Origin: Scenedesmus sp. PABB004
Taxonomy: Eukaryota
NCBI GenBank assembly: GCA_014905635.1
Contig: JABVCE010000009.1
Span: forward strand, 248,001 to 312,000
Direction: 5' to 3'
DNA: 64,000 nucleotides
Part shown: one piece after another, positions 51,801 to 64,000 of the stretch
How the letters are laid out: the number at the start of each line of letters is the position of its first letter
Numbering within the stretch: position 1 is the stretch's first letter
Notes under the pieces: generated by a model
Database searches by the model: none
Seen by the model: only the letters and a program-made list of their open reading frames with translations
What the model was told of the DNA's origin: nothing
Translations under genes and position numbers: made by a program

Positions 51801-54800
51801 CCGGCGACTGCCACCTGCGCCGCGGCGCCGGGCGGGCGTGGGCGGGCGTGGCCGGGCGCGGGAGGGCGGGAGAGCGGGAGAGAACGGAGCGCGGGCGGGC
51901 GGGGAGGGTGGGCGGGTGGGAGGGCGGCCGCGCGGCGCGCGGCGGCGCGCACCACTGGCGCCAGTGGGGCGTGTAGTTGGCGGTGATGCTGATGTAACCG
52001 ACCGGGGCGTCAAACCAGACGTAGAAGACCTGCCGGGCGGCGCACGGGCGGCGGCGGCAGAGTTGCGGCGGGGGCGGCGGCGCAAGGGGGGCAGAGGCGG
52101 AGGCGTGCGGCGCGGGGCGGGCCGGGGCGCGGCCGGCGCCCTGCGCGGCGCCGCCTGTCGCATGAGGCGGGGCCGCACCTTGTCCCGGTAGCCCTCGAGC
52201 GGCACGGGGATGCCCCACTTGAGGTCGCGCGTGATGCAGCGCTGCTTCAGGCCGTCGCGCATCCACGCGCCCGTGGTCTGCGCGCCGCCGGCGCGGCGGC
52301 GGCGGGCGCGGGCGTCGCGGCGGTCGGCCGCGCGAGCCGGGCGCGCGGCGGGCAACGCGCCCCGGCGCCGTGCGCCGCGCACGCCGTGCGCCGCGCCGCG
52401 GTGCGCGCCTGCACGCAGTTTGCGCTCCACCCGCCCAGCTGGCTGGTAGAGTCGATGTAGTGCTGCAGGCGGTCGCTGAGCTTGGGCAGGTCCAGGAAGA
52501 GGTGCTTGGTGGAGCGGATGACCGGCTTGGTCCCCGTGAGCTTGCAGCGCGGGTTGATGAGCTCCGTCGGGTTCATCAGCCCGCCGCACTTGTCGCACTG
52601 GTCGCCGCGCGCGTCCTGCGGGCGGCCGGCCGCCGCGCGCCGCGCCGCGCGCAGGGCTGAGTTCGGGTCGACCCCGCCGCCGGGCGGCCGCGGCGGCGGC
52701 GGCGGCGCCACCGCGGCAGGGCGCGGCGCGCCGAGTGCCCACGGGCGCCGCACCTCGTAGCCGCACTTGGGGCAGGTGCCGCTGACAAAGCGGTCGGCCA
52801 GGAACTTGCCCGCCGCCTCGCTGTACAGCTGCTCCATGGTCTGGCCGAGGGGAGGAGGCGGCGGGGGCGCACGCGGCCGCGGCGGCGGCGGTCACGGCGG
52901 TGTGTGCGGCAGGCCCATCCTTCTAGCCCGGCCCGCGCCGGCGCTCGCGCGCGCGCGTGTGGGCCTGCTGCGCACCTGCTCGCTGATGTTGCCGGCGTCC
53001 CAGAGGTCCTTGAAGAGCGACTGGCAGATCTCGGTCTGCGCCCTGCGCGCGCGCGCGCGGCGGAGGCGCCCGGCCCGGCGGCCGCGCTCGGCGCGCGCGG
53101 CGCGCACGCGCGCAGGCTGCGCGGCGGCGGCCGCGCGGGCGGCCGGCCGGCCGCGCGCGCGGGCCGCGCGCGCACCGCGTGGGCGTGCGGCCAAACTTGT
53201 CGAAGCTGCAGCCAAACCACTCATACACGGCGCGGTGCACGGCGTGGTACTTGTCGCAGATCTCGGCGCAGCTCAGGCCCTCCTCCAGCGCCTGCGCCCC
53301 GCCGGCGCGGCGCGGCGCGGCGGCGGGGCGGGGCGGGGCGGGCGCGCCGCGTGAGCCCGCCGGCGCCGACCGCGCGCGCGCGCGCCCGCCCCTCCGCCCG
53401 CTGCCTGGCCGCGCCGCCCGTCACCCCCTCGGCCCGCTGCCATGACGGCCGCGGCCACCGCCGGGCCGCCGCGCCGCCGGCGACGCGCCTTGGTCTCGGT
53501 GGCGGTGCCGTACTCGTCTGTGCCGCAGATGAAGATCGCGTTGTGCCCGCGCGCGCGCGCGTAGCGCGCGTAGCAGTCGGCCGAGAGCACGCAGCCGATG
53601 ATGTTGCCGAGGTGGGGCACGTTGTTCACGTACGGCAGCGCGCTCGTGACCTGGGGAAAGGCGCCGCGGGCGGCGTGGCGTGGGCGCACGCGCCGCCGCG
53701 GCGGCGGCCGGCGCGCCGCGAGGAGGAGCTGCCGGCCGGCGCGTGCGGCCGCGCCGCGCGCGTGCGGCCGCGCGCGCGCGCACCAGGATGTTGCGCGCGC
53801 CCTTCTTGGGCAGCTTGGGCAGGCGCGCCGCGTGCGCCGCGGCGTCGGCCTCAAACACAGACAGCAGCGCGCCCGCCGGCGCGCCGGCGAGGAACTGCGC
53901 GGCGAGGCGCCGACGCGCGGCGCACCGCGGCGGGCGCGGGCGCGCCGCGTGAGCGGGGCCGGCGCGCGGCACGGCGGCGGTCATCGCGTGTGTGGGCGCG
54001 CCGCACCGTGGCCGTGCCCTGCTGCACCGCCGCCTCGCCCGCGAGCCGCGCCATGAAGCCCGCCACGCCCGGCGGCAGCGCCTCGCCCTTCTCCTGCAGC
54101 GGCAGGAGCGTGCAGTACACGGCGACCTGCGGCGGCGCGCGGGCGCGGCGCGCTCGGCGGCGGGGCGGGCACGGCGGCGTGAGCGCGGCCCCTCTGCCCG
54201 CGCCGCCGCTCACGTCTGCCAGCGTCACGCCGCTGCCGGCCACGAGGCCGCCGTGCTTGGCGAGCTGCGCGTCAAGCGCCGCGAGCGCGCCCGTCGCCGC
54301 GTCGCCGCCCTCGAGCGCCGCGGCGCGCAGGCTGCCGGCCTCCCACTGCAGCCACTGGTCCACGCACGCGGCCTGCTGCGGCGACGCCGGCGCGAGCGCC
54401 GAGCCTGCGCGCGGGGCCGGCGGGCGGCGGCGGCGCCGTCGGCGCGCGCCGGACCGTTTCCCTGCGGCTCGCAGCCGCTGCGCCGCCGGCTGCGGAGGCC
54501 CCCGGGCGCCGGCCGGCCGGCGGCAGCCCGCGCAGCAGCGGCGCGGGCGGCAGCGGCCGCCGCCCCGCGCGCGCCGGCGGCCCGGGCGCGCCGCTGCGCC
54601 GCGGTTCCGATGGCGGGGCGTGGTACCCACCTGCCAGGCAGGCGGCCGCGGCGTTGGGCTCGGTCAGCAGCGCGCCGTCCGGCGTGGCCAGCGCCAGTGA
54701 TGGCCGCCCGAACGCGTCCGCCGGCGCGCCGGGCGTGAGCGTCAGCTGTACGCCAGCAGCCGCCGCCGCGATGGCGACCTTGAGCGCGCCCGCGTCGCCC

Positions 54801-54820
54801 GGGCGCGACGTGAGCGCCAT
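48816..54820 (-). CDS. MARS: Cytosolic methionyl-tRNA synthetase with N-terminal GST-like and C-terminal EMAPII/tRNA-binding domains, about 18 exons
   Basis: [18 protein letters not shown] (HIGH), GTDEYG, CPKC/CDKC zinc knuckles, [48 protein letters not shown]. Confidence 0.96.
49354..49655. repeat. (GGGCGGC)n heptamer tandem array inside a MetRS intron
   Basis: About 300 bp of near-perfect GGGCGGC units within intron ~49341-49812. Confidence 0.95.
50957..51090. repeat. Intronic minisatellite (~49-bp unit, ~2.5 copies) in MetRS
   Basis: cgccccggacgcctccctcgctgca(c/g)gcgcc(c)cagggacg repeated. Confidence 0.8.
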
Positions 54821-55163
54821 GCTGCTGCCGCCCGCTGCTGCTCGGCGGTGCCGACCGCCCTGGCCGCTGAGCCGCCGACAGACGCCCGTGCGCGGTCCTG
54901 GCTGGCCCCCTGGCTGACAAGGGGGCGGTTTCGAGCATTTTGTGGGCTGGCAGGGCAGAAGGGTTCTGCGAGTGTGGGCGGGCGCGGCGCGGGCTCCCCG
55001 GGGCGCGCGGGCCAGCGCGCCGCTGGCTCCGGCGCGCCCACAGTTTTGGAAGTCCGTCCAACGCCCGCCCCGGTCCGTCGGCGCCCCACACACGCCCCGC
55101 CGCTGCCTCCCCGGCCGGGGCGCACGCGGCCACCGGTCCGCGGCGGGCTCGCCGGGCACCGGC

Positions 55164-57266
55164 ATGGCGGCGGCGCCGTGTGCCGCCGGGGCGCCGCCCG
55201 GGCTGGAGGCGGTGTCGCCGTGGGACGGGGCTTGGTATGATGTCGACCTGCCCCGCTCCGTGCTGGCCCCCCACCCGGGCGGCACGCGCTGGGGCGTCAA
55301 GCTGGCGCTGAGGTGGGGCGCCGGGCGCGCGCGAGGGCGGCGGCGGGCGGCGGCGGCGCCGGCGGCGGGCGCGCGCCCGCGCAAACGCGGGGGCTGACGC
55401 ACGCCTGCCGCCGCCGCCGCGCGCGCCGCCCGCCCCGCCCCGCCCGCCCGCGCGGCGCCCGCGTAGGGCCTTCCCGGATGCGGAGGGCCAGGTCGTGCTG
55501 CCTGAGGCTCTGCCCGGCCGCGTGCGCACCGCCAGCCGGTGAGCAGCAGCAGTAGGGCTCGCGCTGCGCCCAGCGATCCGCGATCGGCGGCGCGCGCGGC
55601 GGCGGCGGGCGGCGCGCGGCCGCGGCGCGGCGCGGTCCCGCCCTCACCCGCCGCGCGTTCGCGTTCGCGGCCGGATCCGCCGCGCAGGCCGCTGCAGGAC
55701 GGCGAGTGCCGGCGCCTCGTGCCGGGCGCGCGCGTCGTCGTCGCGCAGCCGCCCGGCGGCGAGCGCAAGTGCGACGTCGAGATCGTGAGCGTGGAGCCCA
55801 CGCAGCACGGCACGGGTGCGCGCGCTGCCGACGCCGCCCGCAGGGCCCCCGCCGCTGCGCCGCCGCGCCGGGCCGCCCCCGCCCGACCCCGCCCCGCGCG
55901 ACCCCGGCCTGCCCCTGCCTCCCCCGCCGCCGCCGCGGGCGGGCGCAGGCGTGGGCGAGTGCGGCTGCGTGTTTGGCGTGCGGTACGTGTTTGAGCACGA
56001 GGCGGCCGCGCGCGCGGCAGGGCAGTTCAACGAGCCCACTGCCACGGCCGTGCGCCTGGCGGACCTGCGCAGCCCGGGGGCCCCCGCGACGGCGCACCCC
56101 GCGGCCGTGCGCTGGCTCGCTGAGATCCAGGAGCGGGAGCGCCCCGCCGCGCCGCCGGCAGCGGTGCAGCAGCAGCAGCTGCCGCCGACGGCCGCCGCGC
56201 CCGAGGCGGCGCCGGTGGAGGCGCCGGCGGCCGCGCCCGACGCGGCGCCGGCGCTGGTGGCGGCCCCCGACGCCGCGGCGCTGGCGGCAGCGCCGCTGCC
56301 TGCTGGCGGCCTGGCCGCGACCGGCGCCGGCTGGGCGATCAGCGGCCAGCCCGGCGCCGCCGTGGCCCCGGGCGGCGCCGACGCGGCGCGGCAGGCCATG
56401 CTCCGGCAGGCGATGATGGCTGAGGCGGCCGGCCGCCAGGCGAGCAACGCGGCCGCGGCGGCGGCCGCCGCGGCGGCTGCCTCCGGCGGCGCGGCGGTGT
56501 GGGCGCCGGCAGCGGCCGGCGTCGTGCCGCTGGCGCAGCCGCTCGTGCAGCCGCTGGCGCAGCCGGCGGCGGCGGCGCTGCCGGGCTCGTTCACCGCGCT
56601 GCTGGCGGGCGCGATCGGCACGTCCCCGACGCCGCCGCCCCAGGCGACGGCGCCTCCGCCGGCGGCGCCGCGGCCCGCGGCGCGGCGCAGCAGCCCCGCC
56701 GCGGCGTCGCTCGCGCGGCAGGGCGGCGCCGGCGGCGCGGCGCTCAAGCGCCCCGGCGTCGACGTGGGCGCCGCCGCGCCCAAGCGCTCGCGCGCGATCA
56801 TCCCGCAGCTCACTCCGCAGCAGCAGCAGGCGGCCGCGGCGGCGATGATGGCGGCGGGCGGCCACGCCGGCGGCGGCGGGCCGCGCGGCCTCAGCGGCCG
56901 CGTGTCGCCCGGCGCTCAGCCGGTCGGCGCGGGCGCCAACGGCGCCAAGGCTGCCGCGCAGGTCGCGGCGGCGGCCGCCGCCGCGCAGCAGCGCACAAAC
57001 TTCCAGCAGCTGCAGCAGCTGCAGGCGGCGGCGATCAAGGTGCTCGGCACCGCGCCCGGCCACGCGGCGGCGGTGCAGAACCTGCAGCAGCAGCAGCAGC
57101 AGATTCAGCAGCAGATCCAGCTGCAGATTATGCGCCAGGTCATGCAGACGGGCGCGTCGCCGCATGCCGCCGCCGCCGCCGCGGCCGTGGCGGCCGCGGG
57201 CAAGTCGGGCGCCCCCGCCGCCGGCGCGGCCGGCGCGCCGCAGCAGCAGACGCTGATGCAGCAGCA

Positions 57267-57307
<41 letters not shown>

Positions 57308-57362
57308 TCGCGATGCAAGCGGTGGTTGCGCAGATGCAGCAGCAGCAGCGCGCGCAGGCGGC

Positions 57363-57442
<80 letters not shown>

Positions 57443-60400
57443 TCCGCGCGGCCGCCGCGCAGCGCAAGCGGACCGCGTCGCAGCAGAACCTGGCGGCCGC
57501 CTCGCTCTCTGCCGCCACGAACGCGGCGCAGGCGAAGCACGCGGCGTCGACGTCCCCCGGCGCCCGCGGCGCCGGCCCCGCCGGCGCCGCGGGCACGCGC
57601 GCGGCCGCGCTGGGCGCGGCGGCCGCGATCGCCGCCGCCGCGAGCAGCGGCGACGCGAGTGCGGGCGGCGCGAGCGACGACGACGAGGCCGGCAGCGGCG
57701 AGGCCGGCGGCGGCAGCTTTGCGGGCGGCGAGACGGGCGTGCCGCCCGACGCGAGCGAGGCGCAGCGCCGTTACTTTATCGACAACCGCCAGGGCAAGCC
57801 CACGCGCTGGCTGCGCGGCGAGGACCACGGCTTCCCGCGCGGGTGGTTCATCCTCGAGCGCACGCGCGTCACGGGTGCGGGCCCGCCCCCTGGCCGGCCT
57901 CCGCGCACGCGCCGCGCGCACCGCGCCGCGCGCGCCGCGCTCGCCCGCGCGCGCCCGCCCACGCCGCCGCGCCGCCGCCGCGGCCGCGCGCGCGCGCCGC
58001 CGCCCGCCAGGCGCGAGCCAGGGCACCAAGGACCGCTACTACCTCGGCCCCGACGGCCGCGTGCTGCGCAACCGCCACGAGGCCCTGGCCAAGGCCGACG
58101 ACTTTGGGCGCTTCCAGCTCCTCGTCGACGCCGCGACGTCGGCGCACGACGTGCTGACCTACGTGCGCGCCGCGCCCGCCGCCGCGCCGCGCCGCGCCGC
58201 GCCCGCAGCGCCGCGCCGCGCCCGCAGCGCCGCGCCCGCCGCACCCGCCGCGCCGCGGCGGCGGTCCCGCCTGTGCGAGCGCGCGCCGCCGCCGCCACCG
58301 CCGCCGGCGCAGGTGCCCGAGCCGGCGACCGTGCTGGAGGGCGCGGACCTGATCGCGCACGCGGGCGCGGTGCAGCACGGCGTGATGGCGCGCCTGAACG
58401 AGCACAACACGCTCACGCACGCGGTGCGGCGCGACGGTGCCAGCGCGCCCGCGCCGGCGGCGGCCGCCGCCGAGCGCGCTGGCTGCGCCGCAGTTGCCGG
58501 CCACGCCCGACACGCGGCGCGCCGCGCGCTGCTGCGCCGCGCGCCCCGCAGACGACCCTGCTGCTGCGGCTGTCTGACATCTGCTCCATGGCCACGATGC
58601 ACAGCGCGCGCGCGCTGCAGCTGCTGCCGGCCGCGGCGGCGGGCCTGTACGATGCCGCGGCGGCGCACGTGGCGGGCCACGTGGCGGAGGGCCGCGTGGA
58701 GCCGGAGCACGGCGCGCAGCTGCTCGCCGCGCTCGCGGTGCTGCTGGAGGTGCCGGGGCGCGAGGCCGACGCGCAGGCGCTGCTGTCGGCGGCCATCGCC
58801 GGCGCGGCGGCAGCCGCCGCCGCCGCCGCCGCCGCCGCCGCGCCGGTGGACGCGGCCGAGGCGGCGGCGCAGCCCGCGCCGGCGCCGGCGCGGCGCGCAC
58901 CGGCGCCCGCGCCCGCGGCGGCGCCCGCGGCGGCGGCCGCGACGCCGCCGCCGGCGCCGGCGCCGGCGGCGGCGGCACGCGCGCCGGGCAGCGTGCAGCT
59001 GCAGCAGCGCGGCCGCGCCGGCAGCGCGGGGCGCGGCGCGAGCCCCGAGGCGCGCGCGCGGGCGGTGCAGGAGAGCATCATCAACCGCGTGAAGGGCTGG
59101 TACGGGTGCAGCGCGGCGCAGCTCAACGCCTACCTGGAGCAGCTGGTGCGGCTCGAGGCGCAGCTCGCGGAGGAGCGCTCCGCGGTGCTGTCGGCCGCCG
59201 CGGGCGCGGCGAGCGCGGCGGCCGGCGCGGTCGCGGCGGCGGCGGCCGAGGCGGCCGCGGCCGCGGCCGCGGCCGCGGCCGCGGCCGCGGCGCCGGCCGG
59301 CGGGGACGCGATGGACGTGGACGGCGCGGCGTCCGTCGCGGGCGCCCGCGCGGCGGCGGCCGCGCGCGGCGCGCGGCTGCTCGCGGCGGCGGGGCGGCTG
59401 CCGCCGCTGCAGGCGCAGCTCGTCGCGCAGCTGGACGACGCAGCGCTCGTGCTGCACGCCGAGATTGCCAGCATGGCGCCGTATCGCCTGCACCTGACGC
59501 AGGCCAACGCTTCGCGCGTGGCGGCCATCCTCGCGCACCTCGGCCTGCCGCGGCTGCAGGACTGGCCGCCGGGGACGGGCCCGGGCCCCGCGGCGGCGCA
59601 GGCGCAGCCGCAGTCGCAGGCGCAGCCGCAGGCGCAGCCGCGGCCGGCGGCGCCAGTGGCGCAGCAGGCGGCGCCGCCGGCTGTGAAGCTCGAGGCGCCC
59701 TCGGCGGCGCAGCAGTCGGTGCCACCGCCGGCGCCCACGGCAGCGCCTCCGCCGGGGCTCGTGCAGCAGGAGGCGCAGCAGGCGCCCCCGGCGGCAGCGC
59801 CCCCTGCAGTGCCTGAGGCGCCAGCCGCTCCGCCTGCAGCAGCGCCCCTGGCGGCGGCGCCCGCAGCAGCGGCACCCCCGGCGGCGGTGCAGGAGGCGCC
59901 AGCCGCCCCGCCTGCCGCGGCCGGGGGCAGCCTGCCCGCGGCGGCGAAGCCGAGCGAGCAGCAGCCGCCGGCGGAGGTGGTCAAGAGCTTGCCGCCGCCG
60001 TCCCCAGCTGACGCGGCCGTGCCGGCGGCGGCGGCCGCCGCGTCCGCCGCCGCCCAGCAGCAGCAGCAGGCGCCGGGCGCCGCGGCACCGCAGGTGGGCC
60101 CTCCGCGCAGCTCCCCGCCCGCGCTGGCCGCGGCGCGCGGCGCGCCGCCGGCGCCGCCGGCGGGCGCCGGGGAGCTGCCGGTCGCCCCGGCCCGCGCCGG
60201 CGCCGCGCCCGCGCCCAACGGACCGCCTGCGCCCGCCCGCTCCCTGCCCATCATCGACCCCATCGCGCACGGGCAGGCGCTGGTGGCGCAGATGATTGGC
60301 CAGCTGCGCGCGATGGTCAACTCGCCGGTGCTGAGCGACGCGCAGCGCGAGCAGCTGCGGCGCGACATGCAGGAGCACCAGGGCCGCGCCGCGGCGGTGC

Positions 60401-60624
60401 AGGCGGCCGCCTGCGCCGCGGCCGCCGCCACGGCGGCGGCGGCGGCGGCGGGCAGCGAGGCGCAGCAGCAGGGCCCGCGCGGCGCGGCGCTGCGCCCGGC
60501 GGGCCTCGGCCTCGGCGGCGCCGCGCCCGGCGGCGCCGGCGGCGGCGGCGGCATCGCGCCGGGCGGCGGGCTCGCACGGCCGCAGGGGCCCGCCGCGCCG
60601 GAGGCCATCGTGATCGACGGCTGA
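55164..60624 (+). CDS. Large chromatin protein with N-terminal SAWADEE domain, polyQ region and MBD-like domain
   Basis: LEAVSPWDGAWYDV...VRTASRPLQDGECRRLVPG...QH....CGCVFGVRYV (SAWADEE pattern); FPRGWFILERTRVTGASQGTKDRYYLGPDGRVLRNRHEAL (MBD pattern). Confidence 0.78.
57258..57441 (+). repeat. CAG microsatellites encoding polyQ tracts
   Basis: Two long CAG runs in the SAWADEE/MBD gene; similar tracts at about 17604-17655, 22557-22612 and 46200-46233. Confidence 0.9.
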
Positions 60625-61119
60625 GGCGTGCGGCGGGCGCGGCGGGCGCGAGCCCCGGCGGCGGAGGCAGGCAGAGCCCTGGGCGTGCGCTGTGCAGTTG
60701 TGAAGTTGATCGGGGGTTTGGATCGACGGCGACAGTCTCGCTGGACTCCGGCTGGAGGCGGCCGACGGCGGCGGTTCTCCTTGGACCGCCAGCGGCGGCG
60801 TGTGTAGGGGCGGCGGTGGGCGGCGCGTGGCGGCTGCCTGTGGCGTGGCGCGCGTCTGGCCGAGCGTACAGCAACAGCAGCGAGGCGCTGCGTCGCCGGC
60901 GCCGCCTCCCGGCAGCCCTCAGTCGCCGCTGCAGCGCGCGTCAGAGTTCTCGCACCTCCCCCAACAACAGCGTCCGAGCGAACCGTCGCTCGGGCGGCGT
61001 CAGCCGCTGCGCCCTCGTCCAGCCCGCGCATCGCACCTGGCGGTTTCCGCGCCTGCGCCGGGAAGCCTGCCCCAGCGCGGTCCGGCAGCTCGAGGGAGCT
61101 CCAGCAGGCGCCTGGCGCC

Positions 61120-62698
61120 ATGCCGCGCCGCGCCTGGAGCGCGCTGTGGCTGGCGCACCTGCTGCTGGCAGCGACGGCGCTGGCGCCGCCGCCGGTGAGC
61201 GCCTCCGGCGGCCCCGCGGCCTGGCAGGCTGCCGGTCAGTCCCAGCACGCCGGTCAGGCACCGCACCGCCCGCCGCCGCAGGCGCACGGCCAGCCGACGG
61301 CGACCGGCGCCGTGCCCGCTGCGCCGGCGCCGCCGGGCGCGCCGCCGTCGACGAGGACGGAGTTTGGCTGCCCCCGCGACCCGGTGTTTGACGACCCGTG
61401 GGTGCGGGACAACGTGGTGCTGAGCTACGCGGCAGAAATAATGGACGGCCTCGGCGGCCAGGTCGCGCGCCAGATGGCCATCTTTGCCGCGGCCGCCGCG
61501 CTCGGGCTGGGGTATGAGCACGCGCCGCTGCGCTGCATCGGCCACATCGGCGGCCGCCCCCACTGGCGCCCCGCCGGCTGCGCCGGCGTCGCGCCGCGCG
61601 ACGCGGCCGCGATGGCGCGCGCGGCGGCGTTTGTCGCGCTGCCGCGCACGGCGGCGGCCAACAACACGAGCGGCTGGCGCGTCGCGCGGCTGCTGCCGGG
61701 CAGCTGGCGGCTGCTCGCGGGCGAGGCGCAGCAGGCGCTGCGACTGCGGGAGCCCACGGTGGTCCGGGTGGAGATGGTCAACCGCATCATGCAGGAGTGC
61801 CCAGACCTCTTCAGCCACGTGCCCGCGTGGCGGCCGCGCGGCGCGCGGCCGCAGCGGGGCGCGGCGGCGGCGGCGGCAGCGCCAGCGGCGGCGGCGGACC
61901 GTCCCGAACGCGGCGGCGGCGGCGGCGGCGGCGGGTACTGGCTGCTGACGCGGCGGCGCAGCGCGCGCATCGCGGTGCACATGCGGCGCGGCGACGTGAC
62001 GGGCGCGATCGCGGCGCGGCGGGGCATCGCGACAAACTTTTACCTCAACGTCGTGACCAACGTCACCGCGGTGCGCGCGCCCGCCGCACGCGCGCGCGCG
62101 CCCGCTCGCCGGGCGGGCCCGCCGACGCGCCGCCAGCAGCAGCGGCGGGGCGCGCCACGCGCGCCCCGCCCCTCGCCGCGCCGCGTCGAGCGCGCCGCGC
62201 GCCGCCGCCGCGCGCCGCCGCGCCGCCGCGCAGGCGCTCGAGCGGCTGGGCGTGGAGTACACGGTCGAGTGGTTCACCGAGCCGGGGCGCAGCGCCGAGG
62301 AGGAGGCCGACCTGGCGCGCATCGCGGCGGCGGTGCCGCACGCGAGCCTGCAGCTCGGCGCCGACTCGCTGTGGAACTGGCAGCAGATGGCGACCGCCGA
62401 CGTGCTGGTCATGAGCAAGAGCGCCTACAGCCTCGTGCCCGCGCTCGCCAACCCTGACGCGCTCATCATCCGCCCGCCACCGGCGGCGCCGTGCGGGCGG
62501 TGCTACCCGAGCCACTGGGTCATCGCGGCCGACGACGCCGGGGCGCTGCCGCCCGGCGCGCTCGGTGCGCTGGAGCGGCGCTTCGCGGCGCCGGCGGCGG
62601 CGCGCGCGCCGCCCCGGCGGCGGCGCAGCAGTGAGCGGAGGCGCGGCCGAGTGCTGCTGGACCCGCGGCAGCGTGCGCGCAGCGCACTCGGGCGGTGA
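61120..62698 (+). CDS. Secretory-pathway glycosyltransferase, fucosyltransferase-like (GT11/GT23-type motifs)
   Basis: Signal/anchor WSALWLAHLLLAATALA; DGLGGQ; IAVHMRRGDV; MATADVLVMSKSAYS; one intron 62071-62232. Confidence 0.65.
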
Positions 62699-62816
62699 CG
62701 CTGCCCCAGCCGCCCCTCTCAAGAGCGAACGAGATTTGCTGGCTGGCTCGGACACGGCGGCTTGGGGCTGCGCCGCGCGCACGCGCCCAGGCCGCCGCCG
62801 CACCCGACTCGGCTGA

Positions 62817-64000
<1,184 letters not shown>

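Follow-up and report, generated by a model that had tools for sequence, protein, structure and literature searches.

A seven-exon gene that joins a SAWADEE domain and a divergent methyl-CpG-binding domain in one probable chromatin-reader protein of a green alga

Structure of the gene

The 64,000-nucleotide stretch of DNA analyzed here in its entirety (the window; positions 248,001 to 312,000 of contig JABVCE010000009.1, Scenedesmus sp. PABB004) carries on its plus strand, at 55164-60624, a gene of seven exons with GT-AG introns and a product of about 1536 amino acids. The spliced product has an N-terminal SAWADEE domain and, ~570 residues further on, a divergent methyl-CpG-binding domain (MBD) that is split by an intron. 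An initial annotation of the window had proposed that the two domains are fused in one gene, and this proposal is upheld by the collinearity of a relative, the codon periodicity of the long fourth exon, and intron positions shared with related sequences. The extent given at that time, 55164..58120, was too short: the gene runs on to a TGA at 60622-60624 and contains a further in-frame intron at 58163-58312. On balance, we think that the locus is a single nuclear gene from a green alga of chlorophycean type and that it encodes a large chromatin-reader protein.

The ATG at 55164 is the first one in frame. Exon 1 (55164-55312) opens the SAWADEE domain with L-E-A-V-S-P-W-D-G-A-W-Y-D-V, and its N-terminus aligns with the N-terminus of P0001, a Tetradesmus obliquus protein (OEZ86_005447, 536 aa) used for comparison throughout. 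Exon 2 (55467-55538), also bounded by GT-AG and collinear with P0001, ends the first Tudor-like half of the domain; exon 3 (55688-55815) supplies its middle, with P-L-Q-D-G-E-C, K-C-D-V-E-I-V, and H-G-T; and exon 4 (55949-57874) includes its end (G-E-C-G-C-V-F-G-V-R-Y), an extension, the linker, and, from ~57739, the N-terminal half of the MBD. Intron 4 (57875-58010; 136 nt, phase 1, GT-AG, GC content 0.94) lies inside the MBD and splits codon G759. The C-terminal half of the MBD, with D766, Y768, R778, and E782, is encoded together with a long helix by exon 5 (58011-58162). Intron 5 (58163-58312; 150 nt) is in frame, rich in CG repeats, and bounded by GT-AG in the gene's own consensus. Exon 6 (58313-58423) holds the first part of a conserved helical module and is matched by the fragments P0012, P0019, P0020, P0027, and P0029, and exon 7 (58552-60624) encodes a four-helix module (58552-58803) and an Ala/Pro/Gln-rich tail with short helical islands, up to the TGA. 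At every donor an exonic G precedes gtg(c/a/g)g, and acceptors read (c)ag before an exonic G or cag before an exonic A.

The base composition of this DNA makes open frames a poor guide. G+C is ~80% in every 2-kb block of the window, and frames of 400-900 codons lie open in several frames on both strands, so that an open frame by itself is little proof of a gene. The modeled frame has GC fractions of 0.86/0.65/0.95 at codon positions 1/2/3, and the order GC3 > GC1 > GC2 holds in 14 of 15 blocks of 100 codons, the exception being block 1301 (GC1 0.92, GC3 0.84). Across the 1926 nt of exon 4, all 30 sliding 150-nt windows have GC3 of at least 0.92 and a GC3-GC2 difference of at least 0.12; the periodicity stays in phase throughout, and the frame joining SAWADEE to MBD thus looks coding from end to end. 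Introns have a GC content of 0.84-0.94. Intron 5, the only one tested for periodicity, has none (GC 0.93; positions 0.94/0.92/0.94), and the exons that flank it have codon-position values of 0.74/0.44/0.98 and 0.81/0.43/1.00. It consists of CG-rich tandem repeats (Tandem Repeats Finder rows at 58165-58257), and translation across it would insert 50 Ala/Pro/Arg residues; with it removed, the alignment to P0001 becomes gapless over 212 aa at 61% identity (E 6.6e-57). We recognized the intron because of this gapless alignment together with the absent codon periodicity.

Relatives and evidence for a single gene

Used alone as a query (70 aa) against longer proteins, exon 5 returned P0001 at E 2.3e-8; among the 8000 candidates scored, only P0001 and a 303-aa protein matched at E <= 1. 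P0001 is the only named full relative, and its membership of the Chlorophyceae agrees with the green-algal affinity first suggested. The spliced protein is collinear with it, at 42% identity over 168 aa in SAWADEE, and the gapless block runs from the MBD module through the helical module. The junction at intron 4 (R-V-T-G / A-S-Q-G) matches R-V-A-G-A-S-Q-G in P0001, and that between exons 6 and 7 (T-H-A / T-T-L-L-L-R-L-S-D) has its match there too. With this collinearity, both the splice junctions and the reading as one gene are confirmed. Among exon-sized fragments from metagenomes and Logan, P0004 and P0006 end, and P0003, P0005, and P0008 begin, at the point of intron 4, and the latter three diverge at the point of intron 5; the coincidence of these ends with introns 4 and 5 indicates that the intron positions are shared.

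An error in which a SAWADEE gene and a neighboring MBD gene have been wrongly joined, the frame between them being an accident of 80% GC DNA, is what the many long open frames on both strands might lead one to suspect, and the proteins of the relatives are themselves predictions. We nevertheless consider such an error very improbable. Exon 4 is periodic and in phase in every window examined whereas the tested intron is not; neither an in-frame stop within the gene nor a TGTAA anywhere in 54000-63000 was found; and two independently predicted relatives, P0001 and the 1588-aa P0033, carry SAWADEE and the MBD module in one protein and in the same order. In P0033, the end of SAWADEE, the MBD module, and the A-V-L-L-E-V-P motif of the helical module follow one another as they do in the window protein.

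The read-through ORF at 55789-60621, compared with an index of 5.8 billion proteins, gave no match, the candidates being swamped by low complexity. Two metagenome loci found with exon 5 were dropped: their tblastn matches were short and unconvincing, with no SAWADEE upstream.

The SAWADEE domain

SAWADEE (Pfam PF16719, cut-off 28 bits), a zinc-binding reader of the histone H3 tail that resembles a tandem Tudor, occupies 55197-56025 (aa 12-142 of the spliced protein, exons 1-4). Joined exons yield all three of the motifs by which it was first recognized, namely E-A-V-S-P-W-D-G-A-W-Y-D-V, R-T-A-S-R-P-L-Q-D-G-E-C, and H-G-T-G-V-G-E-C-G-C-V-F-G-V-R-Y. Here and below, Pfam was run on single-exon translations and on relatives, and the spliced window protein was scored with hidden Markov models (HMMs) of our own. 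Pfam finds the domain in pieces that are partial and below the cut-off, in exon 1 (12.5 bits, profile positions 4-20) and, collinear with this, in exon 3 (18.6 bits, positions 54-95), and a comparison of exon 3 with PDB sequences gave chance rows only. The spliced protein scores 70.0 bits (E 1.9e-14, Z = 1.84e9) over aa 12-142 against an HMM made from 16 of 18 Pfam-positive domains; P0011 and P0013 were left out because they are short fragments 70-71% identical to P0001, that is, members of its own family. P0001 reaches 69.9 bits in Pfam (E 2.8e-19) and matches the solved SAWADEE chains 7ef2/7ef1/7eez at E 9e-8. In BLASTP, the spliced protein also matched SAWADEE proteins of Ostreobium quekettii (P0018, E 4.5e-14), Chlamydomonas eustigma (P0009, E 3e-13), Bryopsis (P0015, E 1.5e-11), and Sphagnum (P0026, E 6e-9).

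All four columns of the Cys/His pattern E-C ... H ... C-x-C are kept, as is the W-Y-D motif, and we take particular residues of this pattern to be the zinc ligands. The conservation of such a Cys/His pattern in SAWADEE has been noted (PMC2775110). The domain has no homeodomain beside it, as the initial annotation had remarked: no homeobox family was matched by Pfam at E <= 10 on six exon translations and P0001. For want of a homeodomain, as judged from these translations, the protein is not an SHH1-type member.

Whether this domain could read methylated H3K9 depends on the aromatic residues of its pocket. In SHH1 of Arabidopsis, Y140A and Y212A both disrupt the pocket for H3K9me2, according to PMC12902148. 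By a uniform numbering offset to maize 7ef2, we infer that Y140 corresponds to the Tyr in W-Y-D, and that Y212 corresponds to the leading Tyr of an aromatic pair before D-A/V. The window protein keeps the first and lacks the second: where P0001 has K-Y-Y-D-A and all 16 reference domains have [YFW][YFM]-D-A, it has K-C-D-V, and the pocket of SHH1 type is incomplete. We take the SHH1 residues F162, F165, E130, and D141, under this numbering, to line the pockets for methyl-lysine and K4; the presumed F162 column is Leu in the window protein and Tyr in P0001, and the presumed F165 column is Phe in the window protein. Reading of H3K9me by the window SAWADEE is accordingly uncertain on its sequence.

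These substitutions lend some credence to a different reading, in which the MBD works and the SAWADEE domain does not recognize H3K9me, serving instead for another H3 state (e.g., unmethylated K4) or in a protein-contact or structural role. On that view, the protein would read methylated DNA and carry its Tudor-like module as an accessory, instead of reading two marks. We regard this as a real possibility, though a lesser one. The missing aromatic pair, present in P0001 and in every reference domain, speaks for it, since the change of Y212, like that of Y140, breaks the H3K9me2 pocket (PMC12902148), and so does the Leu of the F162 column, while the E and D that we take to form the K4 pocket (in L-E-A and W-Y-D) are retained. 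In Arabidopsis, SHH1 also requires this SAWADEE surface to contact MBD7, a requirement that does not depend on H3K9me2 peptide (PMC12902148). Yet the equivalents of Y140 and F165 are still present in the window domain, P0001 from Tetradesmus retains the two Tyr residues, so that reading of methyl-lysine may persist in the family at large, and the position of Y212 was mapped through the offset to maize 7ef2 rather than from the SHH1 sequence itself.

A divergent methyl-CpG-binding domain

The MBD module spans 57739-58150 (aa 714-805), with the canonical core at aa 743-785 (57826-57874 plus 58011-58090). The pattern first seen in an exon pair is recovered across intron 4 as G-F-P-R-G-W-F-I-L-E-R-T-R-V-T-G / A-S-Q-G-T-K-D-R-Y-Y-L-G-P-D-G-R-V-L-R-N-R. 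Detecting it with standard profiles is difficult. Pfam (PF01429, cut-off 21 bits) and searches of PDB sequences with the single-exon pieces gave no profile match and nothing relevant. Pfam scores for the relatives fall below the cut-off (14.2 bits, E 0.033, in P0001, where MBD is the second-best family; 15.7 in P0038; 13.9 in P0025), and in P0033 Pfam finds no MBD. The module came to light only once the exons were joined, or in the already spliced relative. The precomputed Pfam label of P0001 is SAWADEE only. Members of this MBD subfamily thus escape standard annotation, and counts of methyl-DNA readers in algae are probably too low.

A phmmer search with P0001 against 1.84 billion representatives found 47 proteins at E <= 1e-3, 14 of them at E <= 1e-10. 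When Pfam was run on all 47, SAWADEE was above the cut-off in 18 and below it in five, and MBD was above the cut-off in six and sub-threshold in two; the rest were family fragments or unassigned. The six MBD-positive proteins (P0028, 194.6 bits in three copies; P0044, 89.5; P0047, 54.0; P0046, 47.2; P0048, 41.3; P0049, 40.1) were all matched through residues 286-366 of P0001, at E 1.1e-7 to 9.4e-4. We also built a family profile of 13 rows (A1) from P0001 272-378, the two window exon pieces, and ten relatives or fragments, and compared it with all PDB sequences. Thirty-two matched at E <= 10, and the top 29 are MBD chains (E 1.2e-6 to 2.8e-3), with AtMBD6 (7fef, 1.2e-6), MBD2 (2ky8, 7.1e-6), and MeCP2 (~2e-5) best and MBD3, MBD4, MBD1, and AtMBD5 also represented; below these come two WhiB3 sequences and RGECO1. 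P0001 by itself matches AtMBD6 at E 1.1e-4. The spliced window protein reaches 44.1 bits with an HMM built from the bona fide MBDs of the six Pfam-positive proteins, a value from a model whose members were chosen for likeness to P0001 and which is therefore biased toward the family.

Predicted structures may point in the same direction. An AlphaFold2 (AF2) model of the module (pLDDT 84.5) retrieved only MBD/MeCP2 chains with Foldseek in all 32 listed rows to rank 35, with a probability of ~1.0 for ranks 1-33 and of 0.89 and 0.80 for ranks 34-35, and its core hairpin superposes on canonical MBDs at 2.4-3.3 Å over 45-48 columns. In the ESM Atlas, P0001 278-368 lies nearest to a cluster of MBDs (0.91, 204/256 features; 14/30 matches in the set), a lead and not proof. 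By its sequence, the module is an MBD homolog by profile, not a Pfam-level member, that had been left unlabeled in the annotation of P0001. It shares with AtMBD6/AtMBD5, MBD2, and MeCP2 the arginine fingers, the Asp, the Tyr, and the Glu that follows the second of these fingers, and differs from canonical MBDs in its low identity (~30-40% over ~45 residues, below the Pfam cut-off), in Thr at the S100/K32 position, and in its additions, an N-terminal helix and strand (motif A-Q-R-R-Y-F-I-D-N-R-Q-G-K-P-T) and a much longer C-terminal helix of 29 residues.

The residues expected to touch DNA are mostly retained. In the A1 alignment, R756, D766, Y768, and R778 of the window protein fall on R24, D34, Y36, and R46 of chicken MBD2 (the chain numbering is that of the paper). 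In MBD2, R24, Y36, and R46 make base-specific contacts to symmetric methylated CpG (mCpG), and D34 holds R24 (PMC3159451). E782, four residues past R778, corresponds to AtMBD6 E119, which stabilizes the second arginine finger, as described in PMC8811898. P0001, P0038, and the exon fragments carry equivalents of all five residues. The backbone-contacting lysines K32 and K44 of MBD2 are Thr764 and Val776 here; S100 of AtMBD6 occupies the K32 position, and a non-basic residue there goes with weak binding (PMC8811898). The dual reader of H3K9me and methylated DNA first proposed is thus supported in one half, with the four mCpG-contact residues in place, and weakened in the other, where the equivalent of Y140 is kept and that of Y212 is missing. 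As far as sequence goes, the methyl-DNA half looks intact and the methyl-lysine half is doubtful in the window protein.

Several plant MBD proteins and TAM domains bind DNA regardless of methylation, or bind a protein or a histone mark. The module might likewise bind DNA blind to methylation, or a protein or histone mark, and not be a reader of 5-methylcytosine (5mC) at all. Its sub-threshold Pfam scores, its family-specific N-terminal helix and strand and 29-residue C-terminal helix, and the Thr and Val in place of the backbone-contacting lysines would all fit such a role; P0033, without equivalents of R24, D34, and R46, indicates that the family tolerates the loss of mCpG residues; and a plant MBD4 is reported to read histone arginine methylation (PMC13261677, 2026). 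We think it unlikely in the window protein, because R756, D766, Y768, R778, and E782 are all kept, and it is precisely at these positions that non-binding MBDs have suffered losses. There is also an abundance of CpG in this genome, which was first described as CpG-saturated: the observed/expected ratio (o/e) over the whole window is 1.21, without depletion (GpC o/e 1.38).

Profile searches found the MBD module in only four longer proteins, P0001, P0038, P0033, and P0002. With the A1 HMM at E <= 1 over 61 sequences, it was absent from the SAWADEE proteins of C. eustigma, Bryopsis, Ostreobium, and Chromochloris (P0050), where truncation of gene models is possible. The Chromochloris zofingiensis protein (P0016/P0050, Cz01g01230.t1, 1014 aa) has the family-specific extension after SAWADEE and, by the family HMM, no MBD module; perhaps the module has been lost, or the gene model is at fault. 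In P0033, the equivalents of R24, D34, and R46 have been lost within residues ~727-811 (Q-Q-T-K, Q-V-M-M-Y, R-F-T-S) and A-V-L-L-E-V-P is kept; the sequence of this relative, similar in length to the window protein, suggests that one lineage of the family has abandoned the reading of methyl marks. Among bona fide MBDs, the nearest to that of the window (51% identity over 41 aa) belongs to the haptophyte Tisochrysis lutea (P0049/P0052). It adjoins a DnaJ domain in P0052, an arrangement reminiscent of plant MBD5/6, which are linked to a J-domain protein.

Linker, helical module, and tail

The family-specific extension after SAWADEE reaches to ~aa 180, and a disordered linker rich in Ala, Gln, and Pro follows to ~710. 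Within it, a (CAG)n array at 57240-57441 accounts for the disordered polyQ region that had been described, and Pfam finds no family in the linker beyond low-complexity noise. A conserved helical region follows immediately on the MBD, and its exon 7 part (58552-58803) ends in A-V-L-L-E-V-P. AF2, given an alignment of three rows, models this part as four helices (pLDDT 90.5), and 21 columns of it are invariant among the window protein, P0001, and P0033. A structural search with the four-helix module gave no informative match, and an ESM Atlas search with the helical module of P0001 (380-500) no usable one. No catalytic domain was detected by Pfam on the exon translations or P0001. The tail to 60624 keeps coding periodicity except at 58792-59061 and 59692-59961, where it is weak (GC2 ~0.9 or GC3 down to 0.74); these two segments may be further in-frame introns or merely Ala/Pro-rich coding sequence.

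Possible function of the fusion protein

We favor, with moderate confidence, a bivalent reader of two marks, whose binding to mCpG, binding to H3, and downstream effect are predicted from sequence. The modeled chain runs from the N-terminal SAWADEE domain through the ~570-residue disordered linker to the single divergent MBD, the four-helix module, and the low-complexity tail. The MBD would dock on methylated CpG, SAWADEE would engage the H3 tail of the same or a neighboring nucleosome, with the flexible linker permitting both, and the protein would be retained only where the two marks coincide, the helical module and tail then recruiting an effector. The ‘different silencing link’ originally suggested is conjecture: an output in the direction of silencing or of anti-silencing is compatible with this arrangement.

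Several of the results above weigh against a bivalent reader. On the histone side, they are the incomplete H3K9me pocket, with the Y212 equivalent absent and K-C-D-V where all reference domains have the aromatic pair, and the Leu of the F162 column. On the DNA side, they are the sub-cut-off Pfam scores and the missing match in P0033, the bias of the MBD HMM, and the Thr at the K32/S100 position. Finally, the claim of a single mRNA is based on gene predictions in relatives, codon periodicity, and shared intron positions.

The closest known parallel comes from Arabidopsis, where SHH1, through its SAWADEE domain, contacts the MBDs of MBD7 directly, and each protein recruits the other to methylated loci (PMC12902148, 2025). 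The same paper has the SHH1-MBD7 pair counteracting silencing, and SHH1 with Pol IV promoting it. The same two domain types thus cooperate there at methylated, H3K9me2-marked loci, with an anti-silencing output, but they are carried by two proteins, and MBD7 has three MBDs and an STKC domain, whereas the algal protein has one chain and one MBD. With SHH1/DTF1 of Arabidopsis and SHH2 of maize the window protein shares W-Y-D, the E-C ... H ... C-x-C pattern, and the length of SAWADEE. It differs from them in lacking a homeodomain and the Y212-equivalent aromatic, in having SAWADEE at the N-terminus rather than the C-terminus, and in possessing two parts absent from SHH proteins, the MBD and the helical module. 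Pol IV, the partner of SHH1, is presumably a land-plant and streptophyte feature, and chlorophycean algae, to our knowledge, lack Pol IV-type RNA-directed DNA methylation (RdDM).

In principle, the arrangement also resembles animal UHRF1 and SETDB1, in which sensing of the H3 tail and of DNA methylation is united on one polypeptide, a property predicted for the algal protein. The architectures are not homologous: UHRF1 uses an SRA domain and not an MBD, and SETDB1 has a catalytic SET domain, of which none was detected in the window protein. The tandem Tudor of UHRF1 is reported to bind H3K9me2/3, and SETDB1/2 carry an MBD (bioRxiv 10.1101/2021.11.30.470311). SAWADEE was named in land-plant homeodomain proteins, a class that PMC2775110 reports as not found in the green algae then examined, and its range was later given as Plantae s.l. 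plus Cryptista (bioRxiv 10.1101/2021.11.30.470311). We found no description of a SAWADEE-MBD fusion in the literature on SAWADEE and MBD in green algae, a scope that covers main texts and not supplements. The architecture is new and built from known reader domains.

Joint readers of DNA methylation and histone marks set where silencing, or protection from silencing, is established, and a green-algal fusion would give independent evolutionary support to the SHH1-MBD7 coupling. Tentatively, the fusion may be viewed as a ‘Rosetta stone’ for a coupling that predates land-plant SHH1-MBD7 or arose independently of it, and for an algal pathway leading from CpG methylation to chromatin state. If so, the coupling would work through a previously unrecognized MBD subfamily and a four-helix effector module without detectable relatives, and it could be dissected in a single protein of a small genome. 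The value of the finding is moderate, given that both domains are of known kinds and that the reading depends on sequence and models.

Surroundings of the gene

Scans of the window for tRNAs and with Rfam gave no match, and a promoter and terminator scan of 54800-55200 found nothing with a bacterial model, which is irrelevant for a eukaryote. Upstream, a divergent ORF on the minus strand (54631-54820) starts at 54820, ~340 bp from the ATG at 55164, and ends at a GT donor. Pfam finds no family in this first exon; it may bear some resemblance to GST-like N-terminal domains. The gap between the divergent ORF and the reader gene is likely a shared promoter region.

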